Origin: a virus
Length of the DNA stretch: 64,000 bases
Direction: 5' to 3' (one strand)
Virus record (IMG/VR): IMGVR_UViG_3300029419_000277
How positions within the stretch are numbered: position 1 is the stretch's first letter; each line of letters starts with the position of its first letter. A model generated the notes under the pieces. The model searched no databases. It was given only the letters and a program-made list of their open reading frames with translations, and was not told where the DNA came from. Below, one piece after another: positions 38,248 through 55,540 of this stretch. Made by a program: the position numbers and the translations under genes.

Positions 38248-39873
38248 TCAAAAAACGATCATGTCACGTTCGTCGTAGACGCTTCCCTGCTGCTGTCCTT
38301 CGTTTCGGATGCAGCGGTCCAGTGCCATGATTGCAGCGACGATACCATCGATCTTCTCCGGCGACTTCGCCTTGGTCGGCTTGATGTTGCCAGCCGGGTC
38401 GGTATCCACGACCACATTCCCTGCCATCCATGCCATAACAGGATTGCCGCCGTGGATGATCCTGCCTTCCATCAGGAGCTTGTAGAACTCCTTGGTAGGC
38501 GGGCTCATATCTTTGAAGCCCTGACCGAAAGGCACAACTGTGAATCCCATCCCCTCAAGGTTCTGGGTCATCTGCACGGCTCCCCATCGGTCAAAGGCAA
38601 TCTCCCGAATGTGATAGGTCTTACCCAGCTCCTCAATGACCTTCTCAATGAACCCGTAGTGAATCACATTTCCCTCGGTCGCCATCAAGTAGCCCTGCTG
38701 ATACCAGACATCATACGGAACGGATGCCCTGCGCACACGCTGGGGGATCGTATCCTCCGGTATCCAGAAAAATGGAAGCATGATGTATTTCTCTTCCGGG
38801 ATTCTAGGCGGGAACATCAGCACAAAAGCCGTGATGTCTCCGGTGCTGGACAAGTCCAGCCCTCCATAACAGTCACGGCCCTTGAGGGCTTCCATATCAA
38901 TAGGCTGGTTGCCGAGGTTGTAGATGTGTTCCGGGATGAACCGGGTCAGCGAGGACACCCACATATTCAGACGAAGCTGCTTGAATACATTCTCCTCCGC
39001 CGGGTTGTCCAGTGCTTCCTGATACGCATCCCGGACACGCTGGATCTGAATGGTCTGCCCCAATGAGGGATTTGCCTTATACCAGTTGGCTTCATCATGC
39101 CAGTCATCCTCATCTGTCAGTCCATAGACCACAGGATAAAAGGTGTGGTCGATCTTACGTCCAGCCAGCAGGTCAAGGGCTTTCATGTGGAGCTCGTAGC
39201 AGATGCTCTCCTTGTCCGTGCCGGCCGTGGTGATCAGGAAGAACAGCGGCTGCTCACGGGCATCACCGGAACCTTTGGTAAGGACATCGTAGAGTTTTCG
39301 GTTTGGCTGGGCATGAACCTCATCCAGCACCAGACCTGACACGTTCAGACCGTGCTTCGTACCAACTTCGGCAGACAGAACCTGATAAAATCCTGCGTTC
39401 CCGTAGTTCACGATGCGCTTGGTGGCTGCCATGATCTTGCACCGTTTCAAAAGTGCCGGGGTCATCTGCACCATCTGGTGGGCAACATCAAAAACAATGG
39501 ATGCCTGCTGGCGGTCAGCGGCAGCGCCATAGACTTCGGCAGACGGCTCGTTATCGGCAAAAAGCAGATACAAAGCCACCGCAGCGGCAAGCTCGGACTT
39601 GCCGTTCTTCTTGCCGATTTCGACATAAGCCGTGCGAAACTGACGGTTTCCTCTCTCGTCCACGATACCGAACACATCCCGGATGATCTGCTCCTGCCAA
39701 GGAAGCAGCCAGAACCGCTTGCCCGCCCACTTGCCTTTGGTATGACGCAGGTTTTCGATAAAAGTCACTGCCCGGTCTGCTTTTGCGGCATCGTAATGGC
39801 AGGTCGGAAGCATGAACCGGCTGGGTTTGTAGTCCTTCAGTTTCGGATAGTTTTTCGGTCTGCACTCTGCCAT
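38248..39873 (-). CDS. terL: terminase large subunit (Terminase_1 family)
   Basis: 541 aa; ATPase Walker motifs and C-terminal nuclease region typical of TerL; immediately downstream of the small subunit. Confidence 0.9.
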   Translation of the reverse strand: MAECRPKNYPKLKDYKPSRFMLPTCHYDAAKADRAVTFIENLRHTKGKWAGKRFWLLPWQEQIIRDVFGIVDERGNRQFRTAYVEIGKKNGKSELAAAVALYLLFADNEPSAEVYGAAADRQQASIVFDVAHQMVQMTPALLKRCKIMAATKRIVNYGNAGFYQVLSAEVGTKHGLNVSGLVLDEVHAQPNRKLYDVLTKGSGDAREQPLFFLITTAGTDKESICYELHMKALDLLAGRKIDHTFYPVVYGLTDEDDWHDEANWYKANPSLGQTIQIQRVRDAYQEALDNPAEENVFKQLRLNMWVSSLTRFIPEHIYNLGNQPIDMEALKGRDCYGGLDLSSTGDITAFVLMFPPRIPEEKYIMLPFFWIPEDTIPQRVRRASVPYDVWYQQGYLMATEGNVIHYGFIEKVIEELGKTYHIREIAFDRWGAVQMTQNLEGMGFTVVPFGQGFKDMSPPTKEFYKLLMEGRIIHGGNPVMAWMAGNVVVDTDPAGNIKPTKAKSPEKIDGIVAAIMALDRCIRNEGQQQGSVYDERDMIVF

Positions 39874-40367
39874 CAGCTTCCACCTCCTCCCAGCAGATTC
39901 TCCATCTCATCAGCTGCATCCGCAGGACCGCCGTCCGCAGGACCGCCGTCCGAAGCAATGATCCGGCTTCGGGAGGACGGGGTCAGACCGAACTGCTCTG
40001 CAAACTTGTTCATGATCTTCAGATAGGTCTGGGCGATGGACACCTGCGGCACCTGCTGCCAGTACCCGGACGGGGTCTTGACGATAGTGCCGTGCTGGGT
40101 GATGAACTCCTCTGCCTCCTTCCATCGGGCATACGCCTGACAGTAACCGGCAAAGGCCGCCATGTCCACTTCGGTCAGGATGCCGATGGCTTCCATCTGT
40201 TTGGCAAGTCTACGCCACTCTTTCTTTGCTTCCGGCTCCAGCCACTTCGGACAGGCCGGTGCTTTCTTATTGGGCTTCGGTTCGCTGGTGTTCAGCGGAT
40301 GCTTGCCCGGATTACCTTCCAGTTCCTTCATGGCGGTCGGCTTTGGTTTTCTGCCTCTGGTAGCCAT
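39873..40367 (-). CDS. terS: terminase small subunit, P27 family
   Basis: Start at MATRGRKPKPTAMKELEGNPGKHPLN (ATG 40367, AAAGGAGGAG upstream); P27-family signature; the ORF-track N-terminal extension is read-through of upstream non-coding DNA. Confidence 0.75.
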   Translation of the reverse strand: MATRGRKPKPTAMKELEGNPGKHPLNTSEPKPNKKAPACPKWLEPEAKKEWRRLAKQMEAIGILTEVDMAAFAGYCQAYARWKEAEEFITQHGTIVKTPSGYWQQVPQVSIAQTYLKIMNKFAEQFGLTPSSRSRIIASDGGPADGGPADAADEMENLLGGGGS

Positions 40368-40558
40368 TGGCATCTCCTCCTTTCTGCAAAAATGGGTAAA
40401 GAAAAAGGACCTCCAAAGAAGTCCTCGAAATATCATTTTCCTAAACAGGAAACTTTTCTGTATAATTAACAAATAGTTTCCCATTTCGGCAACTTTATAT
40501 AAAACACATCGGATACGAGGCACAGCCCCTTTTCGGGGCGTGTACCTTTTGGGTGCTG

Positions 40559-40936
40559 TTAGGCGTTGGGGTTGGCTTCCTTCCAAGCCTCGTATTCATC
40601 GACCAGCTCCGCTTCCTCGATGACCTGCCAGACGCTGCAGAAGCGGCTTCTCTGCTGCTCGATCTCCGCTTCCGTCCAGTCTTCCGGCTTGCGGCTCATG
40701 TCGTGGTAGGCGTCCATCTCCGCTTTCGTCCGGAAGAAAAGGATCTGCTTCAGCTTCAGCGTTTCCTCATTGTTACGCAGGCTGTACCGCCTGCCTTCTG
40801 CCGCCCTGCAAAGGCTTCCGAGGTCGCTGCAGCTGAGGGTCATGTCCTGCTTGAAGGCGATCTCGATGCCAATCAGCTTCTTCTCGGTGTCGGCTCCCTG
40901 AATGTTCTTAAGGTAGGTTTTTGCTTTGTTCGTCAT
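40559..40936 (-). CDS. hypothetical early protein (125 aa)
   Basis: Start at MTNKAKTYLKN with GGAGGA 8 nt upstream; preceded by promoter-leader cassette A. Confidence 0.55.
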   Translation of the reverse strand: MTNKAKTYLKNIQGADTEKKLIGIEIAFKQDMTLSCSDLGSLCRAAEGRRYSLRNNEETLKLKQILFFRTKAEMDAYHDMSRKPEDWTEAEIEQQRSRFCSVWQVIEEAELVDEYEAWKEANPNA

Positions 40937-40994
40937 GGTCTGTATCCTCCGTGTGTTTTGTTTTCCGTAGGGCTTTCCCCTTCGTTGTGACTGT

Positions 40995-41023
40995 ATATTA
41001 CCGTCACTGCCCGGACATAGCAA
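40995..41023 (-). promoter_or_regulatory. early promoter-leader cassette copy A (TTGCTA-17-TAATAT on the minus strand)
   Basis: Reverse complement of 41018-41023 is TTGCTA and of 40995-41000 is TAATAT, 17-nt spacer; conserved leader acagtcacaacgaaggggaaagccc..acggaggatacagaccATG. Confidence 0.6.
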
Positions 41024-41135
41024 GCGGCTATGCTGCACGATCATACACACCTCTTTTTGTCGGATTTATGTGTATTTCCACACTGGAAGAATCCACCACT
41101 ACGAGCAAAAGCCCCCGAAAGAGCTCTGCCCTTTT

Positions 41136-41420
41136 TCAGTGTGCGTTCCTGATGCACCACTCGATTGCGTGACCGGCATCCGTATAGGTCTCATCGGAAA
41201 TCTTCAGAAGTTCCAGCCGGCATTCAATCGGTGACCAGCCTTCCTCCGGGTCTTCCACAAAGCCGTATACCGCTCCCTCCAGCATGCCATTCCAGTTCAT
41301 CTGGGCAACCAGAACCCGGTCACTGAACTGCATGATGCTATCGTAGCAAGGTCTGAGCCGGTCGTAGAAGCTCTCGATGCTGATGTTGTCCTCCGGGAAG
41401 TCGATCAAATGCTTTTTCAT
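41136..41420 (-). CDS. hypothetical early protein (94 aa)
   Basis: Intact ORF downstream of cassette B with an AGGA-type RBS. Confidence 0.5.
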   Translation of the reverse strand: MKKHLIDFPEDNISIESFYDRLRPCYDSIMQFSDRVLVAQMNWNGMLEGAVYGFVEDPEEGWSPIECRLELLKISDETYTDAGHAIEWCIRNAH

Positions 41421-41477
41421 GGTGAATTCCTCCGTGTTTTCGTTTTTTCCTTGGGGCTTTTCCCTTTCGGTATGTGC

Positions 41478-41506
41478 ATATTACCGTCAGGTGCAGCAGA
41501 TAGCAA
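41478..41506 (-). promoter_or_regulatory. early promoter-leader cassette copy B
   Basis: atatta at 41478-41483 and tagcaa at 41501-41506 (minus strand TTGCTA-17-TAATAT); conserved core GTATGTGCATATTACCGTCAGGTGC..ATAGCAAGCGGCTAAAGTACACGATC. Confidence 0.6.
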
Positions 41507-41555
41507 GCGGCTAAAGTACACGATCTTCTGCCCGGAATACCAAGCAGAATGTACA

Positions 41556-41762
41556 TCACTCTGCATCCTGTTCCATGAGTTCCACAATGGTATCGTAGAA
41601 GAACTGCGGGTCATATGCCAGCGGTTCCCGTCCGGCTTCCTTATCCATCCTGATCTGGTCTTCCACCATATCCTCGGCATCCTCCAGCGTAAAGGCATCC
41701 TTATCGCTGTCATCCATGTGGTTGTAGATTTCCACGATGACATCCATCATCCGCTCTTCCAT
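41556..41762 (-). CDS. small acidic early protein (68 aa)
   Basis: Start at MEERMMDVIVEIYNHMDDSDKD (AAGGAG 6 nt upstream); D/E-rich. Confidence 0.5.
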   Translation of the reverse strand: MEERMMDVIVEIYNHMDDSDKDAFTLEDAEDMVEDQIRMDKEAGREPLAYDPQFFYDTIVELMEQDAE

Positions 41763-41890
41763 GTGCTTCTCCTTTCTGGCGCATCCACGCCGCCACATCT
41801 GCCCCTGTGTTGGACGTTGTCGGTTCATTCGGATCGTTTTGCCACCCGTGGCACAAGCCCCTGTGTGGGGCTGTGTCGGGGGCTGTCGGT

Positions 41891-42082
41891 TTATCTGGTC
41901 ATCCGTCCCAGCAGGTAGGCTTCTTCCATTGCTTTCTGGATGCCCCAGACCGGAACCTCAATGAAGTCCTCGCTGTCATTGTCGTGGGCTTCGAGGTCGC
42001 CCCGGCTGTCTACCGCTGCCATCAGGCGCTTGGCGATCTCCAGCAGGGCTTTTTCCTCTTCCTTGGTGATGTTCTTCTTCAT
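41891..42082 (-). CDS. small early protein (63 aa)
   Basis: Intact ORF preceded by cassette C. Confidence 0.5.
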   Translation of the reverse strand: MKKNITKEEEKALLEIAKRLMAAVDSRGDLEAHDNDSEDFIEVPVWGIQKAMEEAYLLGRMTR

Positions 42083-42126
42083 GGTGGTTTCCTCCGTTTT
42101 TCTTGGTTTTCCGTTTCGGTATGTGC

Positions 42127-42155
42127 ATATTACCGTCTATGTCACACACTATCAA
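42127..42155 (-). promoter_or_regulatory. early promoter-leader cassette copy C (TTGATA-17-TAATAT)
   Basis: atatta 42127-42132; tatcaa 42150-42155; 17-nt spacer. Confidence 0.6.
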
Positions 42156-42252
42156 GCGGCTATACTACACAAATATGTTCCCCCGGAACTGTGCGTATTA
42201 CGGCAGAAGAAAAGGGCCGCCGTTTCCGGCAAGCCCCATGTGTTTCTCTGGC

Positions 42253-42702
42253 TTAGTAGTCTTCATCGTCCTCGTAATCTTCCTCTTCGTCCCAGTCATC
42301 TTCCTCTTCATCCCAGCTGTCATCCTGGTCTTCTTCCTCATCTTTGAAGTCCCACATATCTTCAGTCGGCTGGTTTCTAAGGTCTGGGTTCTGCTCGACA
42401 TAGTCAGCAACCGCTCCGCAAAGGATGTCCAGAACCTTTTCGTAGGCTTCCTCGCTGTAGACTGCCCAGGCATCTGCAGTCAGCTTTGCGATTTTGTCGT
42501 TGCCCTTGACTCCAAGGAACCGCCCTGCAGGGTTGCAGGTTTCCTTGCCGTAGCCGATGCCCAGCTGGTCGCCATCGTTGTAAAAGCGGTATCCGATGCG
42601 GCTCATTGCCCTTACCAGCTCCCCTGCGAGGCTGTCTGCCTTGCCCGTCTCCGGTACCAGTTCCTTGAAAAGTTTATTGATGCGTTCTTCGTTCTTCGTC
42701 AT
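42253..42702 (-). CDS. early protein with a poly-acidic C-terminal tail (150 aa)
   Basis: Start at MTKNEERINKLFKELV (GGAGGA upstream); C-terminus DEEEDQDDSWDEEEDDWDEEEDYEDDEDY. The ORF-track prefix MTVIYSHRKGK is a translation of the promoter cassette. Confidence 0.55.
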   Translation of the reverse strand: MTKNEERINKLFKELVPETGKADSLAGELVRAMSRIGYRFYNDGDQLGIGYGKETCNPAGRFLGVKGNDKIAKLTADAWAVYSEEAYEKVLDILCGAVADYVEQNPDLRNQPTEDMWDFKDEEEDQDDSWDEEEDDWDEEEDYEDDEDY

Positions 42703-42746
42703 TGTCGTATCCTCCGTTTTTGTTGTTTTCCCCTTTCGGTGACTGT

Positions 42747-42775
42747 ATATTACCGTCACCTCGGAGCACTATCAA
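42747..42775 (-). promoter_or_regulatory. early promoter-leader cassette copy D
   Basis: atatta 42747-42752; tatcaa 42770-42775; 17-nt spacer; conserved leader. Confidence 0.6.
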
Positions 42776-42904
42776 GCGGCTAAACTACACGATCATTTGA
42801 CCCTGTAATTGTCATATTTATGTGCTTCTCATGCCAGCTTTCGGAAGACAGACACGAGCAAAAGGCTGGTCATTTCCAGCCCCTTGCGCCTGTCGGTCTT
42901 GCCT

Positions 42905-43165
42905 TTAGCGGATGATTTCAAGGTAGCTTACGTTGCCCCAGCAGTCCGTCCCCTTGAAGCGGATGCGCTTGTCGTTCTCCCTGTCGAGGGTGAATTTCCG
43001 CAGGAGCTTCATCTTCTGGATGCGGTTCAGAAGGTCCTTGCCGTTCTTCGCATCCTCAACGGCATCCCTGATCTCGACCACCGCGCTGTCGCTTCCGTAC
43101 CAGAGGTTGCTGAGTGCCTCTGGAATTCCGTTTGCAAGGTAAAGGCTGATTTTTGTGTAGGTCAT
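42905..43165 (-). CDS. hypothetical early protein (86 aa)
   Basis: Intact ORF. Confidence 0.45.
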   Translation of the reverse strand: MTYTKISLYLANGIPEALSNLWYGSDSAVVEIRDAVEDAKNGKDLLNRIQKMKLLRKFTLDRENDKRIRFKGTDCWGNVSYLEIIR

Positions 43166-43176
43166 GTTTTTTCTCC

Positions 43177-43383
43177 TCAGAATGTCATCGTTTCCAGAAT
43201 CTCATCCATGCCTGTCTCCCAGTCATGGCAGCTAAGTTCGATTTTGCTGTACATCTCTGCGCTGTCCGGCTCATCGAAAAGCCGGAAGCATTCTCTTGCC
43301 AGCTCCTCGCTGGTGTGCTGCTGGATTTCATCCGGCTGTCCATCCAGCCGTGTAAAGATAATCTCGTAAGTGTAGCGTTCCAT
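43177..43383 (-). CDS. small acidic early protein (68 aa)
   Basis: Intact ORF immediately downstream of cassette E. Confidence 0.5.
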   Translation of the reverse strand: MERYTYEIIFTRLDGQPDEIQQHTSEELARECFRLFDEPDSAEMYSKIELSCHDWETGMDEILETMTF

Positions 43384-43413
43384 GTTCTTTGCCCCTTTCG
43401 TTTTGGTAGCTGT

Positions 43414-43442
43414 ATATTACCGTCACTGCCGGACACTATCAA
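43414..43442 (-). promoter_or_regulatory. early promoter-leader cassette copy E
   Basis: atatta 43414-43419; tatcaa 43437-43442; 17-nt spacer. Confidence 0.6.
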
Positions 43443-43523
43443 GCGGCTAAAGTACACGATCATCTGCGCCCTGAACTGGTGGATTTATGTGTTTATCCGG
43501 GGAAGTTTCCCTCCCCGTTTTTC

Positions 43524-43700
43524 TTAGCTGAACATCTCTGCCGTGTCATCGTCGATCCAGAGGTGCATGCCGTCTGCTTCCATGATTGCGTGGTCTTCAT
43601 GAACCTCGGTGATGATTCCTTCCCGGCTTCCGCTACCATCGAATTCGTTCCAGTGCCATGTTGTCTTTCTTCCTTTTTTCCATGTTCTCCAATCATCCAT
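43524..43700 (-). CDS. small acidic early protein (58 aa)
   Basis: Start MDDWRTWKKGRK with AGGAGG 8 nt upstream; the ORF-track prefix derives from cassette F. Confidence 0.45.
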   Translation of the reverse strand: MDDWRTWKKGRKTTWHWNEFDGSGSREGIITEVHEDHAIMEADGMHLWIDDDTAEMFS

Positions 43701-43731
43701 TCTGCTGTCCTCCTTTGCTTTTTGTAGCTGT

Positions 43732-43760
43732 ATATTACCGTCACTGCCCTGTGATAGCAA
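43732..43760 (-). promoter_or_regulatory. early promoter-leader cassette copy F (diverged upstream half)
   Basis: atatta 43732-43737; tagcaa 43755-43760; 17-nt spacer; upstream part reads ATAGCAAGGCCAT as in copy H. Confidence 0.55.
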
Positions 43761-43830
43761 GGCCATAAAACCTCATATTATCAACGATCTTCGTCCCTCA
43801 TGTTTGGTACATATATGACCCCTGATTGAC

Positions 43831-43859
43831 TTGCTATATATGTGTTTCTGCGGCATTAT
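43831..43859 (+). promoter_or_regulatory. plus-strand promoter (TTGCTA-17-CATTAT) with a cassette-like leader, divergent from copy F
   Basis: TTGCTA 43831-43836; CATTAT 43854-43859; leader acacacaacgaaagcaaag...aaacggaggacaaaaaccATG resembles the minus-strand leaders. Confidence 0.5.
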
Positions 43860-43908
43860 ACACACAACGAAAGCAAAGAAAACCAAACCAAAAACGGAGG
43901 ACAAAAAC

Positions 43909-44161
43909 CATGAAAAAGACCATTACAGAAGTTGAAAACGCAATCGAAAACCGCATCGCAGAACTTGAAGAAGAATACGAGCTGGACATTTACGACCGCA
44001 ACGACATTCGGGAAGAAGAATACCAGAAAGCCGGATGGCGGCACGACCCTTTCCCAGAGGAGCTTGAGGAAGAGGACGAAGAAGAGGAAGAGGATTGGCA
44101 CTACCACAGCATGGAGGAACGACTGAACGAGGTCGGCATGAGCATGAGGGATTTCTTCTAA
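43909..44161 (+). CDS. small highly acidic protein (84 aa)
   Basis: Start MKKTITEVEN (GGAGGA RBS); ELEEEDEEEEEDWHY stretch; one of very few plus-strand genes. Confidence 0.55.
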
Positions 44162-44279
44162 GGAATCCCAAGAGGCTCCCCAGCAGAGGCTGGGGCTCTG
44201 CCTCGTATCCCCCGTTTTGGTTTGGTATGATACACAAAACCGCTGCCAGATGTTTGTGTACATTATGGCGGCGGTTTTC

Positions 44280-44308
44280 CTTGCTATCGTTGCTTTCCAG
44301 AGGTAATA
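44280..44308 (+). promoter_or_regulatory. plus-strand copy of the early promoter (TTGCTA-17-TAATAT) pointing antisense to the 44360..44551 gene
   Basis: TTGCTA 44280-44285, spacer tcgttgctttccagagg, TAATAT 44303-44308, then leader acagtaaac...; a GC-rich hairpin lies at 44320-44346. Confidence 0.45.
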
Positions 44309-44359
44309 TACAGTAAACTGGAAGGGGGTTCTCATTCTTTTGAGGCCCCCATTTTCCGT

Positions 44360-44551
44360 CTAATCGGCTTCGCCCTGTATTGCCTGATGCATCACCCTGC
44401 GGTTATGCGCTCTGGCTTTCTTTTTCAGATCCCTTTTCCATCTGCGGATGGTCACCGCCTTGCAGTGGTTTCTCGACCATTCGTATTCATCCAGAACGTA
44501 TCTGCCGCCGTGTTCCCTCTCGCCATAAGCCGGCATCTTTCTGTGTCCCAT
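44360..44551 (-). CDS. small basic protein (63 aa)
   Basis: AGGAGGAG RBS 4-6 nt upstream of the ATG at 44551; K/R-rich. Confidence 0.5.
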   Translation of the reverse strand: MGHRKMPAYGEREHGGRYVLDEYEWSRNHCKAVTIRRWKRDLKKKARAHNRRVMHQAIQGEAD

Positions 44552-44573
44552 AGGCTCCTCCTGTTAAACTAAG

Positions 44574-44608
44574 CCCTCCCGGTCTTTTCTGGCCGAGAGG
44601 GTATTTTT
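44574..44608 (+). terminator. rho-independent terminator on the plus strand
   Basis: ccctcccggtc (44574-44584) / ggccgagaggg (44591-44601) stem, ttttct loop, then TATTTTT (44602-44608). Confidence 0.55.
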
Positions 44609-44622
44609 CTGATTGTGGTATC

Positions 44623-44994
44623 TTATTCCGGCTTCGTTCCGTCATCCATCTGGATGACTGCCATATGCCCGAACATGCTGACGAATACCTCCGGCACCCA
44701 GAAGCGTTGCCTGAATTTCTGGATGAGGTCCTGGGGCAGCTCTGCGAAATCTTCCTCTCCCAATCCGCAGATGAAGAAGTTTCCCTTGATGGGCTGCTCC
44801 AGCTCCGGAATGTACCGGCTGAACGGCTTCTCAGTGAACATCCCATTGTCGTCCGTTACCAGTGCCACGGCATCCGCTTCCCACGGGTACGTGGCTGTGA
44901 TGCGGTCGCAGTCGAGGATGCGGTAGAACTCTTTCAGGGAGTTTTCAATGTCAACCACCTGCGGATGCTCCATCGGTTTGATCAGAAGAACTTT
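44623..44994 (-). CDS. DUF3846 domain protein
   Basis: 123 aa from MKVLLIKPMEHPQVVDIENSLKEFYRIL...; pattern typical of DUF3846 proteins of ICE/phage anti-restriction regions (recalled, not searched); ATGA overlap with the upstream gene. Confidence 0.55.
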   Translation of the reverse strand, partial: KVLLIKPMEHPQVVDIENSLKEFYRILDCDRITATYPWEADAVALVTDDNGMFTEKPFSRYIPELEQPIKGNFFICGLGEEDFAELPQDLIQKFRQRFWVPEVFVSMFGHMAVIQMDDGTKPE

Positions 44995-45461
44995 CATTCG
45001 ACCCAGCCCCCTTTCACGATTGCCCAGTCTGCAAGCTGCATCTTCTGCTGTCCGCCCCATGCAATATCCTCTAACGCTTCCTCCGTTCCGCAGCGGTTGC
45101 AGATCTGGATGTCCGCCCTTCGGCTGAGTGCCTGCTGCTGATGGTCGTAACAGTCCGGCTTTGCTCCGCACCTGGGGCAATGTGGGCCGGTCTGTCGCGT
45201 TTTACCAAGACGGTCAAGCGACACCTTGACCTCGGCTTCCAAAGCCACACGGTGGCAACTGTCCGCGCCGTAGGCAACGTTCAGATGGCTTCCGGTGTCC
45301 CAGCTCACCAAGATGTTTCCGGCATCATCGACCCCGTTGCAGGTTCCCTGCGTTCCGATGGGCGGTGCCTGCCTGTCATCCATCTCATCGAGGACGATCC
45401 GACATCCGACCGGGAACTCTTTTCTCAGCTTCTCGACCGTTTTCTTATCTGCGAAATTCAT
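44994..45461 (-). CDS. DUF4314-like domain protein with C-terminal zinc ribbon
   Basis: 155 aa; MNFADKKTVEKLRKEFPVGCRIVLDEMDDRQAPPIGTQGTCNGVDDAGNILVSWDTGS; CPRCG..CNRCG. Confidence 0.5.
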   Translation of the reverse strand: MNFADKKTVEKLRKEFPVGCRIVLDEMDDRQAPPIGTQGTCNGVDDAGNILVSWDTGSHLNVAYGADSCHRVALEAEVKVSLDRLGKTRQTGPHCPRCGAKPDCYDHQQQALSRRADIQICNRCGTEEALEDIAWGGQQKMQLADWAIVKGGWVE

Positions 45462-45937
45462 GCCTGCACCTCCTCGATCATCCGCTGGGCGGCATCCTTA
45501 TCCATGCATTCCTTCAGCGCACTTTCGAGGATGTGCATCGGGAAGTGGAATGCCTTGTAGCCGTCATGCAGAACTTTGTAGTAATACCGGCTCGGTGCGC
45601 GGTGCCCGAAGTCGTTCTCCATGATGTAGACCATTGCGGTCACCATCTCCGGCTCTGCCCTTTCCCGGAGCAGTTCGATGTTCAGATCTTCCTTGCGGTA
45701 GTAGTTCGGGTAGCCCTCATAGAGGTCGAGGTTTCCTTCGTCTCTTTCCGAGATCTCCCACACCAGAACCGGCGTGTTCTTCTTCGGGTTCGGTGCGATG
45801 GTGGCGCAGCCGCGGAACAAAAGCTCCCAGCCGGCCAGCACCGCCTGCCCTGCAATTTTTGCATCCGGGCATCGGTCTGCCATCTGCTCCACCGACAGGT
45901 TGCTGCCGTAGGCGATGTAATATTTCTTGTTCTTCAT
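45458..45937 (-). CDS. gamma-glutamyl cyclotransferase-like (GGCT/AIG2 fold) protein 1
   Basis: 159 aa from MKNKKYYIAYGSNLSVEQMADRCP; YxAYGSNL motif and downstream LYEGYP with candidate catalytic Glu. Confidence 0.7.
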   Translation of the reverse strand: MKNKKYYIAYGSNLSVEQMADRCPDAKIAGQAVLAGWELLFRGCATIAPNPKKNTPVLVWEISERDEGNLDLYEGYPNYYRKEDLNIELLRERAEPEMVTAMVYIMENDFGHRAPSRYYYKVLHDGYKAFHFPMHILESALKECMDKDAAQRMIEEVQA

Positions 45938-46067
45938 TTGAATCTCTCCCTTCGGTTTTCTCCGCTCTTGTCTGGCGGTATGGTATATATCACTCTTCTG
46001 CCCTGATTTATCAAGGCCGATGAGCATCATATACTGCACAATGTTTTTTGCTTTTGATCGTGTACTC

Positions 46068-46589
46068 TTACATCATCTGCCGCTTCTTCAGATACCGGAT
46101 GGCTTCCGCCCTTCCGATACTGGCTGCCAGTCCACGCTTCAGTGTGTCCTGCGGAAACTCCCAGTCGCTGTATCCGCCCTGCAGCAGTTCAAAATACTCG
46201 GCATCCGGGCATCCAAGCCGCCGGTCCTCGTGCATCACATAAGCGATGCAGGGCTTTGCCTTTTTCATGCGGTTCCCGTTCAGGTTCCAGACCGGAAGCT
46301 GGAACTGCTTCTTGTAGTAGTATCGTGGGCAGCCCTCGTACCGGTCCAGCAGGAGTTCATCGTATTCCGAGAGTTTCCAGACCACCGCAGGTACGCTTTC
46401 ATTGGCATCCTGCTCGATGGTGGCATAGCAGCCGGTCTTGCTCTTTTTGAACAGAAGCCGGTAGCCCTTGATCTCGGTCGTGCCGACCACCACAGCGTAG
46501 GGGCATCTCTTTCCCATCCGCTCCATGTCGAGGTTGCTTCCGTAGGCAAGATAATATCTGGATGGGACTCGGCTGATCAACTCAAACAT
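46068..46589 (-). CDS. gamma-glutamyl cyclotransferase-like (GGCT/AIG2 fold) protein 2
   Basis: 173 aa from MFELISRVPSRYYLAYGSNLDMERMGKRCP; LDRYEGCPRYY; paralog of the previous gene. Confidence 0.7.
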   Translation of the reverse strand: MFELISRVPSRYYLAYGSNLDMERMGKRCPYAVVVGTTEIKGYRLLFKKSKTGCYATIEQDANESVPAVVWKLSEYDELLLDRYEGCPRYYYKKQFQLPVWNLNGNRMKKAKPCIAYVMHEDRRLGCPDAEYFELLQGGYSDWEFPQDTLKRGLAASIGRAEAIRYLKKRQMM

Positions 46590-46818
46590 CTGCCTCACCG
46601 TCCTCCCTGCCAGTGAATTCCACGCCCTGGAAATCCTCTGTCCCAAGCTCGATCTGGCTGTCCTGCCACCAGTCCTCTGCCACACGCTGTGCTTCCTCCA
46701 CGGTCGGCTCTTTCATCTCGGATTCATAAATGGTCACCGTTCTCTGGTAGGTCTCGGTGATGGTCACCTTAAAGGTTCTGCCACCCGGTGTGTTTTCATT
46801 TTTTAACGTGCTTTTCAT
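46582..46818 (-). CDS. small hypothetical protein (78 aa)
   Basis: Intact ORF between the amidoligase-like and GGCT-like genes. Confidence 0.45.
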   Translation of the reverse strand: MKSTLKNENTPGGRTFKVTITETYQRTVTIYESEMKEPTVEEAQRVAEDWWQDSQIELGTEDFQGVEFTGREDGEADV

Positions 46819-46885
46819 AGACCTGCACCTCCTTCTACCACCTCAAGGGCGGTTGCCCGCCCAAAAGGTGCCCGTGCATCCCGGC

Positions 46886-47824
46886 TTATTTGTTCCGCCA
46901 GGATGCGTTGCCCTCCATGTTCCGCAGAAGGATTTCCCTTGCCGTTGCAAATTCATCCCCGATGAATCCCAGCCTCAGCATCCAGCACCGCATCGCATAC
47001 TTTTCATTGTCGGTCTGCTGGGGCTTTGGGCTTGCCGTCCTGACCATCTTGGCAAGCTGGCTCATTGCGAGGCAAAGCTGGATATAGGCTTTCATCTCAC
47101 CGGCGTGCAGTCCGTTGCGCTTTCCGTCCGCTGGGTCTGCGAATTGGAAAAGGCGGAATTCAATGGTCCCTTTTGTAAAGGTGGCATGGAGGTTCAGCAT
47201 ATGGTACCGGCTTGAATTGTAGTGGGCATTCCGGTTTTCCCAGCTGGAACCGTTGCCTTCGTACCAAATGTCTTCCAGCTTGCGCATGGTGGTCGGCTTC
47301 TCGCGGTTCAGCCGGTCGAGGAAGCGATGGTTGACCACCTGGCAATATTGTCCGGTGCGCCCTGCATCGATTCGGATGGCTCTGCCGATCTGCTGTTCGT
47401 GCGCCGCCATGATATTCACAAGGTTGCGGATGGTCTTTGCGGTGTGGTCGCCTTTGCCGATGTGGATGTGAACCCCGCATCCGCGGCTTGGGCCGCTCTT
47501 TGCGCCTGCCTTTCGGAGCAGCCGGATAATCTCCTGCAAGGTTTCGATGTCGTCGTAGGTGAGGATCGGGGTGACCAGTTCGCATTTTTCTGCGTCCGGT
47601 CCGTAGATGCTCACATCCCTCTGGAATTTCCAAACCCTGCCCTGCTGGTCCTTGCAAGCCCAGCTGTAATATCCGTACTCGCCGGCGGCGTTCCATGCTC
47701 TGGTTCCGAAGTACTCGGCGACCTTTCTTGCCGCTTTTTCTCTGGTGATGTTGTTCATCTCGATCTCAACTCCGATGGTCTGGTTCTTCATGGCTTCAAT
47801 CTGCTCTCTTGTTTTATCGTTCAT
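46886..47824 (-). CDS. putative amidoligase-like (Amidoligase_2-type) protein
   Basis: 312 aa from MNDKTREQIEAMKNQ (AAAGGAGAA RBS); GCGVHIHIG His-rich motif; C-terminal NEKYAMRCWMLRLGF shared with the 48057..49244 product; family assignment from memory. Confidence 0.45.
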   Translation of the reverse strand: MNDKTREQIEAMKNQTIGVEIEMNNITREKAARKVAEYFGTRAWNAAGEYGYYSWACKDQQGRVWKFQRDVSIYGPDAEKCELVTPILTYDDIETLQEIIRLLRKAGAKSGPSRGCGVHIHIGKGDHTAKTIRNLVNIMAAHEQQIGRAIRIDAGRTGQYCQVVNHRFLDRLNREKPTTMRKLEDIWYEGNGSSWENRNAHYNSSRYHMLNLHATFTKGTIEFRLFQFADPADGKRNGLHAGEMKAYIQLCLAMSQLAKMVRTASPKPQQTDNEKYAMRCWMLRLGFIGDEFATAREILLRNMEGNASWRNK

Positions 47825-47871
47825 GGTATGTTCTCCTTTGTTTTTTCCTTGTTTTCCCTTTCGGTATGTGC

Positions 47872-47900
47872 ATATTACCGTCAGGTGCGGATAATAGCAA
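47872..47900 (-). promoter_or_regulatory. early promoter-leader cassette copy G
   Basis: atatta 47872-47877; tagcaa 47895-47900; 17-nt spacer; leader as in copy B. Confidence 0.6.
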
Positions 47901-48056
47901 GGATATAAAAGAACATATATTCGACAAATATAAGGCAGAATGATCGTGTACATTTCTGCAGTTTATCCGCTTGATAATGTACATTTTCAGAGCTAATATC
48001 GGTATAATGGAAGAGGGTCTCGCATATTTTCCGGCCCCCATTGGGGGCTTGGGAGC

Positions 48057-49244
48057 TTACGCTCCCGCCTCCAGCATCTGCGCCGTGTCCGCCCCACAGT
48101 CGGGCTGTGTCGGCTGGTTTTCTTCCTGTTCGACCGTTTCCCCTGTGGCAGGATTGCCGTTCTGTGCGGCTTGTTTCGCGGCTTTCAGGGCATCCCGCTT
48201 TGCCTTTTCCCTTGCAAGGAACTTCTGTGCTTCCTCATCCGTGCGGAAAGCCGCATGGCCAGAAAGGTTCTCCATGAGGATCTTGCGTGTTTCCTTGAAA
48301 TCCGGACCGTTCATGCCCAGCCGCAGGAGCCATGTGCGGAGTGCGTATTTCTCATTCTCATCGTTGACATCCTTTGCTTGGATGCGCTTCTGGCTGATAG
48401 CCTGCTGGTTCATCAGCACCGCCAGCTGTGCGAAAGCCGTCAGGTGTTCGTGGTCCGGTGCAGTCGGGAAACCGGTGAAGATGATCTTCTCGGTGGTGAT
48501 CTTCAAGCCTTCCAGTGCAGCACCATGTTCAGTCTCATAGTCGCTGACCGCGTTGATGAAGTTCATGATGGCAAAGGTGCAGCTATCGTCCTTCAGCTTC
48601 TCGACCAGCCCCTCTTCCACATGGAAGTGTCCGCCAGTCGCCTTGCCGATGAGCTTGCCGCGGCTGTAAAGAAGGTTGACCAGGTTGCGGAGAGTCACAC
48701 CATTGTGCTGGCTGACCGGGAATGCAAGTTCCAAGTCCAGCGGCACTTCTTCCGGCTGGTCTTCTGTCTCCTGCCATTCCTCAACTTCTTGCACTTCTGT
48801 TTCCGGCTCATCCTCTGTGGCATCATCCTCAGCCGTATTGTCCGGCTCCGATGCGTCCTCGGCCTCTGCTTCCGCAGGTTCATCTTCTGCGGTATCTGCA
48901 TCTTCGAGTTCCTGCTCGTCCATAACCTCCGGCTCTGCTTCGGTATCTTCGGTCACAGAATCCTCTTCCAAATGGTCGGTCGGCTCCGTGTTTTCCATCT
49001 GGTCATCCGTGCTCTCAATGCTCTCGCCACCGCGGATCAGACCCTCATTCAGCAGGGTCGTCAGCAGCTCGGCATCTGCATTCTCCGGCTCGACCAGAAG
49101 GTTGCCATCCCGGTCGATGGTGTAGCTCCCGATGTCGTAAGAATACAGAGGTGCTTTGGTATAGTAAGGGTGGATGCCGGTCAGCTCCTCAATGCGTTTT
49201 GCGAGGGTCTTGCGCTCGGCTACGTTCAGTTCAAATTTCAACAT
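48057..49244 (-). CDS. amidoligase-like paralog with a ~100-aa poly-acidic insertion
   Basis: 395 aa; GGHFHVEEG and NEKYALRTWLLRLGMNGPDFKETRKILMENLSGHAAFR match the 46886..47824 product; central D/E/T-rich region. Confidence 0.45.
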   Translation of the reverse strand: MLKFELNVAERKTLAKRIEELTGIHPYYTKAPLYSYDIGSYTIDRDGNLLVEPENADAELLTTLLNEGLIRGGESIESTDDQMENTEPTDHLEEDSVTEDTEAEPEVMDEQELEDADTAEDEPAEAEAEDASEPDNTAEDDATEDEPETEVQEVEEWQETEDQPEEVPLDLELAFPVSQHNGVTLRNLVNLLYSRGKLIGKATGGHFHVEEGLVEKLKDDSCTFAIMNFINAVSDYETEHGAALEGLKITTEKIIFTGFPTAPDHEHLTAFAQLAVLMNQQAISQKRIQAKDVNDENEKYALRTWLLRLGMNGPDFKETRKILMENLSGHAAFRTDEEAQKFLAREKAKRDALKAAKQAAQNGNPATGETVEQEENQPTQPDCGADTAQMLEAGA

Positions 49245-49305
49245 AATTCATCGCTCCTTCTCGTTCATTTGTTTTTGTGCATCCCGATGTTCTTTTCGGT
49301 AGCAC

Positions 49306-49335
49306 ATATATCGCTCTAAACCGGATGAATAGCAA
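49306..49335 (-). promoter_or_regulatory. early promoter-leader cassette copy H (degenerate, 18-nt spacer)
   Basis: tagcaa 49330-49335; atatat 49306-49311; upstream ATAGCAAGGCCAT as in copy F; leader accgaaaagaacatcgggatgcac..gagaaggagcgatgaattATG. Confidence 0.45.
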
Positions 49336-49467
49336 GGCCATTTCCCGATATTCTTCATGTTCGACCATTTACACAAGGGACTGCGAAATCTGTTGTGTAA
49401 ATAGGACCAATATGTAAGCCCACCATATCACCAGGTCGATTTCTACCTAGTAATATAGCGGGCCAGT

Positions 49468-51726
49468 TTATTCTTCCGGACCTGCGCACCAAGCGATGCC
49501 AGCCAGAACAAAAAATGCGTTGGCTAAACAAATGCCGTTGCCCCAGATACGGTACTCTGCCGAATCCGTATACGGGTCAGCCAGCCATTTCCGGATCTGC
49601 TTCTCCGTTTTCGGCTTCTTGGCATGGGTCACGATCTTGCGATGCGTTTCAAACACATCCGCCCAGAACGCCAGATCTTCTTCGGTCGGATCTTCCGTTC
49701 CAAGATCTCTGCACCACCAGTCCGGAAAGCCCTGCAGTCTGGCGCACTCGGTCGGTGTCAGACGGCGTACAGTGTAAGTCACAGGTGCGGGCTGTGCTTC
49801 CGGATTGTCGATGACCAGACGGTCATTGAAAGCATCCTGCCCGTTGAAGCCGCTGGGATGCGCCCCGGTTGCCACCGTTCCCATGACACCCTCGTTCAGA
49901 TGCGGCACCGGTGCGATGGTGGTCGGGTCTTTGTAATCCCGCGCCATCAGGGTCGGTGCGACTTCTTTTGCCACCTGCATATAGGAGCCGGTGGTCATGG
50001 CATACACATCCTCCGGTGCACAGACCGCATGGCGGTCAGTGGCATCCAGTGTAAAGCAGACATCCTCATTGACGCCATCCCCCTGCGGACCGTTCTCATC
50101 CTTGCGGCCGATCATGTTGCCCTGCAGAACGAAGGTCTGCATCTGATCACTCCGGGTCGCCATCAAAGCGCCGGACTTGCCATGCAGGTCGATCAGCTCA
50201 TTGCGCTGGTTCACATGGAAGGCAGTCACCTCTTCCGGCTGTGCCACAAAGGTCTGCTGCTTCATCCCCGGCTCTGCTGCCAGTGCCGCTGACTTCTCTC
50301 CTAGATCCCGGACTTCATCCCTCTGATTCTGGGTAAAGGCGACCGGCTCTACCACACAGATACCACCCTGATTACAGGTCGGGTCGCCACCACTGCGGTC
50401 CAGTGTCCGGGATGTCTCCGCTTCATAGAAACCGCTGTGCGGATTGTCGGACATCATGGAATGACTGGCTTTAGAGCAGACACCATAACATTTCGGAACG
50501 AACAGTGTCTGATCATTGTTGCAGCCGAGGGTAGCTGACTTTTCTTCCTGCCAGATGGCTCCCTTGCCGCCGCCTTCACACCCGGAACGGATCTTCAGTG
50601 TGACTGCCGGGGAGTTTTCAACTTCTTTCACCGGACTTTCCACTGGATTTTCAACAGCGTCCATGACCATCGGGACATTACCGCCGCCTGTACCGCACCG
50701 GCTTGTCAGTGTCTGTACCTTACCATCCTCGGAAATCTTCACCCGACTGTCAGCAGGATGATTCTCCAGTGCGATGGCAGCAGGCACGACACCAGCCCGG
50801 AGGGTCGGTGACCGCTCTTCCTCGTATCCAATGCTTCTGGCATCTGCGGAATGCTCGGTACAGAAACCGGCGGCTTCCAGAACACAGGGCTGATGCCCAT
50901 GCTCCTCTGCCCGGAGGGTTCCGGTCACATCCTGGGAAACATCCATCTGCTTACCGCCCTGGTCGTTCAGACAGATTCGTCCTCCTGCTCCGCTGAAGCC
51001 TGCCTCTCCAGTGCCGCTTTCAGCACCGGCGGCAGCTCTTTGCCACGCACGGAAGCCCTCCGCAGAATACCGAGACACGCCTTCGGACTCAAATAATATC
51101 TTTGGGGCACTCTGGTCTGCAAAATCTGCGACAAGGTAGATGCGTTTTCTTCTTTGGGGAACGCCCCACCATTGTGCATCAAGAACTCGATATGCGACGC
51201 TCCATCCGTCTCCCACATAGTAGTCGGCGTCTGGCCATCCTTTCTTCTCAGGCGCAGGCACCGTGGCGGCCGGTTCTTTAACACCGATGACGGCTTCGAG
51301 GACTGCTTTGAAGTCCTGTCCTTTGTTTGAGGAAAAGGCCCCTGGCACATTCTCCCACACGATAAATCTTGGTTTTTCTCCATTGGTCTTACACCTCATT
51401 TCCTTCACGATTCGGATTGCTTCGTAAAACAGACTGGACCGTGAACCATCCAGACCGTCCCGCTTACCGGCGATGGACATATCCTGACAGGGACTGCCAA
51501 AGGTGATGATGTCCACTGGCGGCAGGTCCGCACCGCTGATGGCAGATACATCTCCGTAATGCTTCACCTGCGGCAGACGCTTCGTCGTGACCCGGATGGC
51601 AAACGGCTCGATCTCACTGCTCCACACAGGAGTGATCTGCCCGGTTAAAAGACCGCCCAATGGAAAACCCCCGGAGCCATCGAAGAGGCTGCCGAGGGTC
51701 AAAGTCTTATTCTGTTCTGTGCTCAT
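49468..51726 (-). CDS. DNA (cytosine-5)-methyltransferase with an extended variable region (possibly multispecific)
   Basis: 752 aa; motifs I (LFDGSGG), IV (GSPCQDMS), VI (ENVPG), VIII (QRRKR), then ~380 aa of variable region before RRLTPTECARLQGFPDWW (IX/X). Confidence 0.85.
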   Translation of the reverse strand: MSTEQNKTLTLGSLFDGSGGFPLGGLLTGQITPVWSSEIEPFAIRVTTKRLPQVKHYGDVSAISGADLPPVDIITFGSPCQDMSIAGKRDGLDGSRSSLFYEAIRIVKEMRCKTNGEKPRFIVWENVPGAFSSNKGQDFKAVLEAVIGVKEPAATVPAPEKKGWPDADYYVGDGWSVAYRVLDAQWWGVPQRRKRIYLVADFADQSAPKILFESEGVSRYSAEGFRAWQRAAAGAESGTGEAGFSGAGGRICLNDQGGKQMDVSQDVTGTLRAEEHGHQPCVLEAAGFCTEHSADARSIGYEEERSPTLRAGVVPAAIALENHPADSRVKISEDGKVQTLTSRCGTGGGNVPMVMDAVENPVESPVKEVENSPAVTLKIRSGCEGGGKGAIWQEEKSATLGCNNDQTLFVPKCYGVCSKASHSMMSDNPHSGFYEAETSRTLDRSGGDPTCNQGGICVVEPVAFTQNQRDEVRDLGEKSAALAAEPGMKQQTFVAQPEEVTAFHVNQRNELIDLHGKSGALMATRSDQMQTFVLQGNMIGRKDENGPQGDGVNEDVCFTLDATDRHAVCAPEDVYAMTTGSYMQVAKEVAPTLMARDYKDPTTIAPVPHLNEGVMGTVATGAHPSGFNGQDAFNDRLVIDNPEAQPAPVTYTVRRLTPTECARLQGFPDWWCRDLGTEDPTEEDLAFWADVFETHRKIVTHAKKPKTEKQIRKWLADPYTDSAEYRIWGNGICLANAFFVLAGIAWCAGPEE

Positions 51727-53757: not shown

Positions 53758-53779
53758 GTAGGCTCCTCCTAATTCAGAT

Positions 53780-53998
53780 TCACATGCGCATGACCCCGGA
53801 GAAGGGCACGAAAAAGGAGCCGAACAAAAAGCCCGACTCCATTTCATCTCCATCTTCCTGCGGCTGTTCAGCCATCTCGCACCATTCCGGTTTTTCCCCG
53901 TTCACAGATGCCAGCACCTTATCTTCCGCATCGTCAATCGCATGTACACAGATACCCCCGGTGTTGAACATCGGAAACATACCGATAATCTTACTCAT
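53780..53998 (-). CDS. small hypothetical protein (72 aa)
   Basis: Start MSKIIGMF with GAAGGGAG 9 nt upstream. Confidence 0.45.
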   Translation of the reverse strand: MSKIIGMFPMFNTGGICVHAIDDAEDKVLASVNGEKPEWCEMAEQPQEDGDEMESGFLFGSFFVPFSGVMRM

Positions 53999-54485: not shown

Positions 54486-54777
54486 TTGCATCGCCCTCCT
54501 TCCAGCGTCCTTTGTTTGCACAGGCACGGCTGCAATATTTCCGTTCCAGACCATACTGGTGCCGGTAGGAAAACTCCCTGCCGCACACCGGACAGATCTT
54601 TGACCGCACGGTCTTCCAGTTCTCTGGTTTCGGGTGGGTGTTGTTCCACCGTGACCGGCATTCCGGTGAGCAGAACTTCCGTGGTCTGCCTTTATGGTTT
54701 GGTACGATTGCCGTACCGCACTGAGGGCAGAAGGAAAAAGCCATGTCCCTGATCATCTCAGCCGTGTAATCTTCCAT
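54457..54777 (-). CDS. tandem zinc-ribbon protein (same CxxCG...RKFCSxxC motif)
   Basis: 106 aa; CPQCG..RPRKFCSPECR and CPVCGREF..RKYCSRAC. Confidence 0.5.
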   Translation of the reverse strand: MEDYTAEMIRDMAFSFCPQCGTAIVPNHKGRPRKFCSPECRSRWNNTHPKPENWKTVRSKICPVCGREFSYRHQYGLERKYCSRACANKGRWKEGDANGRTAEHRA

Positions 54778-55537: not shown

Positions 55538-55540
55538 GGG

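Follow-up and report, generated by a model that had tools for sequence, protein, structure and literature searches.

The 64,000-nt window analyzed here, IMG/VR virus record IMGVR_UViG_3300029419_000277, is a prophage whose accessory island, at 40.9-49.3 kb, is punctuated by a family of short repeated elements. Our best reading of these elements is as promoter cassettes of a sigma-A type, resembling the promoter-early stem-loop (PeSL) cassettes of T4-type phages, with an extra and unexplained recognition block. They are probably composite promoter-leader cassettes specific to this phage lineage, each of which would define one transcription unit consisting of a single accessory gene or of a group of 2-4 genes.

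There are seven matches to TTGMTA-N12-GACGGTAATAT in the window, always on the minus strand (40995, 41478, 42127, 42747, 43414, 43732, and 47872), vs. 0 across 100 dinucleotide-preserving shuffles of the window; by itself, the 11-mer GACGGTAATAT retrieves the same seven sites, vs. 0.47 expected. A profile hidden Markov model (HMM) trained on 121 unique cassette copies from related phages matched these seven sites, designated class I (c1 to c7, Table 1), with E-values of 1e-15 to 1e-21, and returned three weak plus-strand matches (43812-43880, 44249-44320, and 47947-47979; E 0.007-0.025) and no further match in the window. There are also five looser relatives of the class I cassette: two of them, at 49308 and 45987 (c8 and c9), conform to a class II pattern, TTGMTA-N12-AGAG(T/C)GATATAT with a T-rich spacer, and the other three are on the plus strand, at 43831, 44280, and 47971 (p1 to p3). 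The original prediction of about ten near-identical copies thus stands for the seven class I sites, at the coordinates listed for them, whereas the remainder are these looser relatives; likewise, the listed site 49306-49335 is promoter-like but belongs to the second class (TTGCTA-N12-AGAGCGATAT), and the promoter-like sites 45987-46014 (minus strand, class II) and 47971-47999 (plus strand) were missing from the list. The class I copies are restricted to 40.9-47.9 kb, and the profile search did not find the cassette in the structural, lysis, replication or early regions.

To define the anatomy of the element, we aligned the window copies to about 280 unique ones drawn from 240 loci. An upstream motif, with versions ATGATCGTGTAS, TTTGTGTAGTATAG, TTTGTCGAATATATG, and ATCGTTGATAATATGA, lies 9-25 nt 5' of the -35 and is also found with the plus-strand promoters p2 and p3; the sequence TGTCGAA occurs in the upstream motif of c7 only. 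The -35 has the general form T(T/G)G(A/C)TA (TTGCTA in 108 copies, TTGATA in 77, and TGGATA in 47 across relatives) and is followed by 11 near-unconserved spacer bases and then by an invariant, non-palindromic block at -18 to -13, which is TGACGG in class I and AGAG(T/C)G in class II. The -10 is TAATAT, rarely TAACAT or TAAGAT, or GATATA(T) in class II; across relatives, variation of the class I -10 is confined to the fourth base while A2 and T6 are kept, as a -10 hexamer predicts. Immediately 3' there is RCA and then xxYAC, with a conserved pyrimidine-A whose A is about 7 nt beyond the -10. Information content among the 121 unique copies is approximately 2 bits per position at the -35, in TGACGGTAATAT and in the start region, vs. 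approximately 0-0.6 for the 11 spacer bases. The hexamers are separated by 17 bp in all seven class I copies and in p1 to p3, and the class I copies sit 31-60 nt 5' of a Shine-Dalgarno sequence and a start codon. The promoter geometry that had been predicted was recovered: -35/-10-like hexamers 17 bp apart, a start position, a leader, GGAGG and ATG, all co-oriented with the gene.

Conservation of hexamers, block and start around a free spacer is predicted by selection and not by mere recency of the copies. This bears on the possibility that they are neutral relics of tandem duplication in the recent past, or derive, as copies or fragments, from a small mobile element (a miniature inverted-repeat transposable element or the end of an insertion sequence), with only a coincidental look of promoters. 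The copies in one genome are indeed very alike and exchange sequence, and public contigs often break in this region; however, a variable spacer between fixed flanks is the opposite of what recency would leave, and the core is kept where the proteins are 45-65% identical. Additionally, the copies lack terminal inverted repeats and target duplications, show a fixed orientation and distance to the start codon, and had no match in 72,556 plasmids or in phage records outside this phage type, and we consider a duplication or mobile-element origin very unlikely.

In relatives, the leader is 20-61 nt long and contains 48% A, 25% G, 20% C, and 8% T. It had been predicted to hold a conserved RNA structure with a GGG/CCC stem, which was not borne out: the 176 unique leaders gave a mean minimum free energy of -3.7 kcal/mol and a mean z-score of -0.5, which is no energy signal, and the GGG..CCC hairpin is optional, being present in 53 of them and in two of the seven window leaders (c1 and c2). 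A scan of positions 39500-50000 against Rfam at E <= 1 yielded no relevant match, and a single chance match to a small nuclear RNA.

According to many automatic gene calls, the conserved stretch would instead be an N-terminal peptide shared by the downstream proteins. Some cassette copies do have an open frame throughout, and public proteins begin with cassette-derived residues (MTVIYSHRKG.. or MIVYFSRLI..DGNMHIPKG..); however, the core-to-ATG distances are evenly spread over the three frames (73/95/77), indicating that the cassette is not coding. Moreover, the frame of the gene meets a stop inside the cassette in 196 of 245 unique copies, the upstream motifs of c3 and c4 contain TAG, and every copy has GGAGG 6-10 nt 5' of an internal ATG, so that a shared peptide can for practical purposes be dismissed. 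Spurious extensions of open reading frames (ORFs) through the cassette, anticipated in the original prediction, do occur among the window ORFs (MTVIYS.., LTVICTYRKGK..) and equally in public gene calls: those for the cassette-driven genes P0039, P0047, P0011, P0005, and P0091 start inside the cassette (MTVIYSHRKG.., MIVWFSRLI..DGNMCIPKG..), and GenBank entry PV036417 has a 39-amino acid (aa) ORF annotated on the opposite strand over the promoter (L242:4955-5074).

As shown by comparison of related phages, the 25-35 nt common to all copies also act as a substrate for homologous recombination, through which modules are deleted, inserted, provided with a promoter of a new class, or gene-converted. 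The gene following c6 is gone in L092, L051 and the more distant L089, leaving a single hybrid cassette that is c6 upstream and c5 downstream, with the switch inside 25 nt common to both copies (GGCAGTGACGGTAATATACAGCTAC). L004, L005, and L033 have a cassette of their own before the second gene of the c5 unit, with an extra gene in between. In L053, c1 and c5 have an identical -35 and spacer, unlike in the window, which indicates gene conversion, and in more distant phages (L216, L219, L222, L227-L229, L231, and L234) class II replaces class I 5' of orthologous amidoligase genes; a further class II site is L243:12535. Since searching by the motif itself biases the sample, we fetched loci through the amidoligase protein, obtaining 33 distinct upstream regions with orthologues of 61-100% aa identity: 14 had class I, 16 had class II or a close variant, and three had neither, and the class did not follow protein similarity or the protein tree. 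In the relative Ruminococcus phage NatCom_3870, from a cultured metagenome, the island contains a single class II cassette adjacent to a single class I cassette, with none elsewhere in 50 kb. About 31 protein families follow cassettes across the sample. The hybrid cassettes bear out the modular gain and loss of genes by recombination that had been suggested, and the island between methylases and terminase is a hyperplastic region like those that house PeSL cassettes in T4-type phages.

Gain and loss of the intervening genes as cassettes, together with the clustering of the copies directly 5' of terS, could also fit DNA sites without a transcriptional role near the packaging genes, either terS recognition repeats (cos/pac) or attC-like sites serving a site-specific system of cassette recombination. 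Nevertheless, the copies are spread across 7 kb, one per gene, at a fixed distance to the Shine-Dalgarno and start codon and with promoter geometry; crossovers occur anywhere in the 25-nt identical stretch, as in homologous recombination; and the island has no dedicated recombinase, whereas a general recombination module (PDDEXK nuclease, single-stranded DNA-binding protein) is encoded upstream. Such packaging or attC-like sites are, in our estimation, extremely improbable.

With the elements read as promoter-leader cassettes, host RNA polymerase with its primary sigma factor would recognize both hexamers at their 17-bp spacing and would start transcription approximately 7 nt 3' of the -10, at the conserved pyrimidine-A. 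The unstructured, purine-rich leader and the strong Shine-Dalgarno would then favor efficient translation, and terminators would partly insulate the units, each accessory gene or small group being expressed on its own. The invariant block, and probably the upstream motif too, might be the handle by which a putative phage regulator switches the whole island together. We infer the use of sigma-A, the strength of the promoters and the existence of a regulator.

Several observations weigh against this scheme. The seven class I copies match the consensus at 5/6 or 4/6 positions of the -35 (TTGATA/TTGCTA) and at 4/6 of the -10 (TAATAT), and a generic promoter scan consequently flags only the TTGATA copies; the consensus TTGACA is found at the -35 in 0 of 279 unique copies, though TTGATA is one transition away; and in class I the -18 to -13 block does not correspond to an extended -10 of the TG type. 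Altogether, these deviations would be compatible with recognition by a factor different from plain sigma-A. Also, the start positions are sequence predictions, a canonical hairpin with a U run is found at the end of just 3-4 of the nine units, and none of the candidate regulators examined could be tied to the cassette. An operator of the CI/Cro type was discarded, as the repeat of the Cro region, TTAGACCGG, is absent from the cassettes and not enriched in the window.

A plain promoter does not account for the two-class block, the never-consensus -35 or the upstream motif, and these features point to a trans factor particular to the lineage. The shared regulatory input of the original prediction is therefore plausible at the DNA level, through the invariant block and the conserved upstream motif, but not as leader RNA structure or as a single palindromic operator over the -10. 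Inverted repeats around the -10 measure only 4-6 bp, have shifting centers and no covariation, and do not form a conserved operator: GTGAC-N11-GTCAC (c1, c4) and CGGTA-N9-TACCG (c2, c3, c7) differ in their centers, and their apparent G/C covariation tracks lineage and not pairing. A single-strand promoter hairpin of the Frpo type does not fit either, as the -35 and -10 are in a normal duplex arrangement and there are just these short inverted repeats. When compared by eye with Firmicute TRTG/TGn extended -10, sporulation-sigma, SigD, extracytoplasmic function sigma, Spo0A, cre, and LexA box patterns, the -18 to -13 block gave no convincing fit.

A tentative alternative, to which we give clearly less credit than to the promoter-leader cassettes read by the primary sigma factor, is that these are middle- or late-type promoters needing a phage factor that reads T(T/G)G(A/C)TA and/or the -18 to -13 block, recruiting or re-targeting RNA polymerase, on the model of the MotA/AsiA middle promoters of T4 or of the late activators Xpf of PBSX and RinA/ArpU. 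Besides the never-consensus -35, this is consistent with TGACGG or AGAGTG blocks that are invariant in phages of different host families and with a first-expressed region that is devoid of cassettes. A candidate factor is also encoded approximately 25 kb upstream of the cassettes, outside the window (L159:1106-1855): a 250-aa protein from the early operon whose sole recognizable part is sigma-70 region 4, with a weak, sub-threshold match to "positive control sigma-like factor." A protein encoded at the equivalent position in NatCom_3870 (1407-2024) has a similar helix-turn-helix at its C-terminus, and this phage also has a separate annotated transcriptional regulator (7297-7707), whose sequence may be RinA/DUF1492-like. 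However, the 17-bp spacing, A2/T6 and a start 7 nt downstream are the exact geometry of a primary sigma factor, and the region-4 protein shows no sigma region 2 in its N-terminal 160 residues and no detectable sequence homologue in NatCom_3870 (best E = 0.99). Both the region-4 protein and the zinc-finger/helix-turn-helix proteins encoded upstream of the island would be putative candidates for the regulator.

The units proposed for each cassette are collected in Table 1. Terminator-like hairpins with a U run precede c1, c3, and c4, whereas the remaining units end in hairpins without a U run.

Table 1. Predicted promoter cassettes, promoters and terminator-like hairpins of the accessory island, with the genes that they would serve.
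Feature	Position	Strand	Sequence characteristics	Proposed target or context
c1, class I cassette	40940..41051	-	Upstream motif ATGATCGTGCAG; -35 TTGCTA 41018-41023; TGACGG block; -10 TAATAT 40995-41000; leader of 58 nt with GGGGAAAGCCC hairpin and GGAGG; ATG at 40939	125-aa gene 40559-40939, final gene before terS
c2, class I cassette	41421..41533	-	Promoter 41478-41506	Nmad4-domain gene 41136-41420
c3, class I cassette	42083..42180	-	Promoter 42127-42155; upstream motif variant TTTGTGTAGTATAG	DUF6900 gene 41891-42082 and small gene 41556-41762
c4, class I cassette	42703..42802	-	Promoter 42747-42775	149-aa protein gene 42253-42702
c5, class I cassette	43384..43469	-	Promoter 43414-43442; short leader of 33 nt	68-aa gene 43177-43383 and 86-aa gene 42905-43165
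c6, class I cassette	43701..43787	-	Promoter 43732-43760; short leader of 31 nt	58-aa gene 43524-43700
c7, class I cassette	47825..47927	-	Promoter 47872-47900; upstream motif TTTGTCGAATATATG	Amidoligase 46886-47824, DpnD/PcfM gene 46582-46818 and GGACT gene 46068-46589
c8, class II promoter	49308..49335	-	TTGCTA-N12-AGAGCGATAT	Upstream of 395-aa amidoligase-associated protein gene 48057-49244
c9, class II promoter	45987..46014	-	TTGATA-N12-AGAGTGATAT	Downstream genes: GGACT 45458-45937, DUF4314 44994-45461, DUF3846 44623-44997, 63-aa gene 44360-44551
p1, diverged cassette	43831..43859	+	TTGCTA-N17-CATTAT with leader; back to back with c6	43911-44161, 83 aa, acidic; sole plus-strand gene of the island
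p2, promoter	44280..44308	+	TTGCTA-N17-TAATAT; CAGAGG block	Directed into 3' end of minus-strand gene 44360-44551
Hairpin and AUUUU after p2	44319-44358	+		
p3, promoter	47971..47999	+	TTGATA-N17-TAATAT; CAGAGC block; ATGATCGTGTAC at 47940-47951; back to back with c7	Directed into 3' end of gene 48057-49244
Terminator-like hairpin	42856..42883	-	GGGGCTGG-AAATGA-CCAGCC-TTTTGCT	Closes c5 unit, upstream of c4
Terminator-like hairpin	42207..42240	-	Hairpin and T run	Closes c4 unit, upstream of c3
Terminator-like hairpin	41102..41129	-	GAGCTC-TTTCG-GGGGCT-TTTTGCT	Closes c2 unit, upstream of c1

The plus-strand promoters p2 and p3 sit just beyond the stop codons of the minus-strand genes that they face. 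In relatives that are 81-99% identical, the -35 of p2 and A2/T6 of its -10 are retained, and the predicted p2 transcript forms a hairpin of approximately 45 nt followed by AUUUU (-22.8 kcal/mol, z -3.2); its product could be an antisense or small RNA, or the structure could just be a bidirectional terminator beside a promoter. Between the last cassette-driven gene and terS there is a 190-nt non-coding stretch (40370-40559, minus strand) with a GCCCC-GAAAA-GGGGC hairpin, a weak promoter-like TTGCCG-N17-TTAATT, and a second hairpin plus the terminator-like GAGGACTTCTTTGGAGGTCCTTTTTCTTT at 40405-40426, kept in relatives; it looks like the leader of a late operon under antitermination control and/or a cos region. 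A hairpin-forming repeat, GCCCCTGTGTGGGGCTGTGTCGG, occurs at 41801-41823 and 41857-41879, between the genes of the c3 unit, and at 48091-48113, near the 3' end of the 395-aa gene.

Apart from the island gene served by p1, the genes of the prophage are on the minus strand. Downstream of the repeats are terS (Terminase_4), TerL, portal, a ClpP-type protease and an HK97-type capsid. The block adjoining the island upstream (49468-56608) has a counter-restriction look, encoding a 752-aa C5 methylase, an N6/N4 methylase and another that is fused to ParB, a pair of zinc-finger proteins (53991-54554 and 54457-54777), of which one has a helix-turn-helix, an HNH endonuclease and a phage-encoded S-adenosylmethionine (SAM) synthetase. 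Further upstream, the replication block contains a D5-type primase and an SNF2 helicase, as well as a protein of 238 aa that carries a PemK/MazF toxin domain (59532-60248), and contigs with the same helicase continue beyond the window with DUF932, PolA, the single-stranded DNA-binding protein, the PDDEXK nuclease, the region-4-only protein and an XRE/Cro-like gene. The other end of the prophage encodes two large serine recombinases (1596-3428 and 7035-9335) and a PDDEXK_2 transposase-like protein (5467-6273). The island thus occupies the far end of the replication/DNA-modification block, wedged between the DNA methylases and the terminase, indicating that it is not the immediate-early region; there was no cassette match in 21 kb that take in the XRE/Cro-like gene.

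By its gene content, the phage resembles Candidatus Heliusvirales, temperate phages of gut Clostridia. Nine markers were described for that lineage (PMC11283538), namely TerL, portal, major capsid, head protease, DNA polymerase I, helicase, nuclease, and two unknowns. Within the window, Pfam domains identify TerL, portal, capsid and ClpP protease, and PolA, the SNF2 helicase and the PDDEXK nuclease are just upstream; likewise, NatCom_3870 is filed under Ca. Heliusvirales. Prophages of this type have been reported to rank with the most widespread phages in the human gut (PMC9226167, PMC11283538). In a species-level genome collection we found 37 loci with the core, all in the same phage context, in Blautia, C. 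fessum, Wujia, Acetatifactor, Ruminococcus, Lawsonibacter, Acutalibacteraceae, Oscillospiraceae, and Monoglobus, and the same island and element are present in relatives whose TerL is only about 62-65% identical. A literature search for the core sequence retrieved unrelated papers only, and the paper describing the Heliusvirales lineage (PMC11283538) makes no mention of promoters or intergenic elements.

The domains found in the island are Amidoligase_2, two GGACT, DpnD/PcfM, DUF4314, DUF3846, DUF6900, and Nmad4; the small class I-driven genes are mostly ORFans, and searches of Pfam, PHROGs, and NCBIfam assigned only domains of unknown function for most genes. The 395-aa protein matches phrog_2443, "amidoligase enzyme" (E 9e-40), and by eye its C-terminal segment resembles the C-terminus of the neighboring Amidoligase_2 protein (..NEKYALRTWLLRLG.. 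vs. ..NEKYAMRCWMLRLG..); two GGACT paralogues follow, and this amidoligase/cyclotransferase set is conserved across the phage family. The proteins from 42253-42702 and 43911-44161 end in or contain long D/E runs and are possible DNA mimics. A sequence search of the Protein Data Bank (PDB) returned nothing for two cargo proteins. AlphaFold predicted helical bundles for both the 149-aa acidic protein (predicted local distance difference test score, pLDDT, of 88.7; the model adds a disordered poly-acidic tail) and the 125-aa protein preceding terS (pLDDT 87.8), and Foldseek found no match to either model in the PDB (best E 2.2 and 1.3, respectively). The idea that this pre-terS protein is an activator like RinA/ArpU found no support in its predicted model, which has no relative in the PDB.

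The closest parallel for the cassettes is found in the PeSLs of T4-type myoviruses (Arbiol et al., 2010, PMC2839356; Comeau et al., 2014, PMC4122927). Both are short, repeated cassettes with a sigma-70-like promoter, ending in a Shine-Dalgarno and start codon; both cluster before small ORFan genes in a hyperplastic region; and in both, related phages differ by insertions, deletions and replacements whose junctions fall inside the cassette. Nevertheless, they are unrelated in sequence, and the cassettes described here are from a temperate, siphovirus-like, HK97-type prophage of gut Clostridia with serine recombinases, whereas PeSLs are from lytic T4-type phages of Gram-negative hosts. Additionally, a G/C-rich stem-loop is integral to PeSLs, inside the promoter or adjoining it, and the sequence upstream is AT-rich; here, separate terminators occur in some units only, the inverted repeats at the -10 are unconserved, and there is an invariant two-class block at -18 to -13.

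Morons, known from lambdoid and other temperate phages, are autonomous accessory units with their own promoter, and often a terminator, located between conserved modules. The island appears to share this organization of accessory genes as autonomous units between conserved phage modules, with a promoter-like element in every unit and a canonical terminator in 3-4 of nine. In classical morons, however, promoters are unrelated from one moron to the next and the base composition is often deviant, whereas up to a dozen units here use one promoter family and their GC content is close to that of their neighbors. The moron concept is reportedly treated in work by Juhala and colleagues and by Hendrix and colleagues, both from 2000.

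Temperate actinophages also have short conserved sites in many intergenic regions and in a single orientation relative to transcription, as do the cassettes: the stoperators of L5 and, in phiC31, conserved inverted repeats with near-identical early promoters. In those arrays, one protein controls many units and the same site is also found at the promoters of the immunity region; here, in contrast, the early region carries another repeat, TTAGACCGG, and no cassette. Promoters dependent on phage factors, such as the T4 middle promoters (a MotA box plus a sigma-70 -10) and those served by the late activators Xpf of PBSX and RinA/ArpU/LtrC, are alike in combining a normal -10 with a phage-specific element in place of, or beside, a consensus -35, and the region-4-like protein is a candidate reader. 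They differ in that the -35-like hexamer described here still starts with TTG in most copies, and dependence on a phage factor is a candidate only. T4 middle promoters have been reviewed (PMC2988021).

Anti-defence genes are found in the leading regions of conjugative plasmids and in early-injected regions of phages (Samuel et al., 2024, PMC11541004; PMC12455610). Comparably, this is an island of small accessory genes beside DNA methylases, with strong-looking expression signals for each gene; however, the plasmids use single-strand hairpin promoters (Frpo), whereas the promoters here appear to be ordinary duplex ones. DpnD/PcfM, DUF3846, DUF4314, and Amidoligase_2 are families typically found on conjugative elements. 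Any role of the island in anti-defence would be only an analogy; it rests on the nearby methylases and SAM synthetase, on these conjugative-element domains, and on the position beside terS. A bolder proposal, which we hold to be rather unlikely, is that both classes are read only with dedicated heliusvirus factors at the TGACGG/AGAGTG block, and that the island, being upstream of terS, is packaged last and injected first as the phage counterpart of a plasmid leading region, with establishment or anti-defence genes shuffled by recombination, each under its own insulated promoter that would fire once the tip of the DNA is inside the cell.

The kind of element described here is already known from PeSLs and morons; what is new is its presence in a ubiquitous lineage of gut phages, in two classes and with an unexplained recognition block. 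The idea of promoter cassettes as recombination substrates, put forward for PeSLs, thereby extends from lytic T4-type to temperate phages of Gram-positive anaerobes. In practical terms, a defined cassette provides a rule for the correction of start codons, as public gene calls carry cassette-derived extensions or spurious ORFs on the opposite strand, and the repeats are a plausible cause of metagenomic assembly breaks in the region; in passing, we observed that several contigs of the amidoligase-anchored sample end within a few kb of the amidoligase gene. The cassettes are also candidate portable expression signals for Lachnospiraceae and Oscillospiraceae. For the biology of these phages, the cassette marks a hyperplastic accessory island from which new accessory, possibly counter-defence, genes can be harvested, and its two conserved recognition blocks offer a concrete entry point to their regulation.

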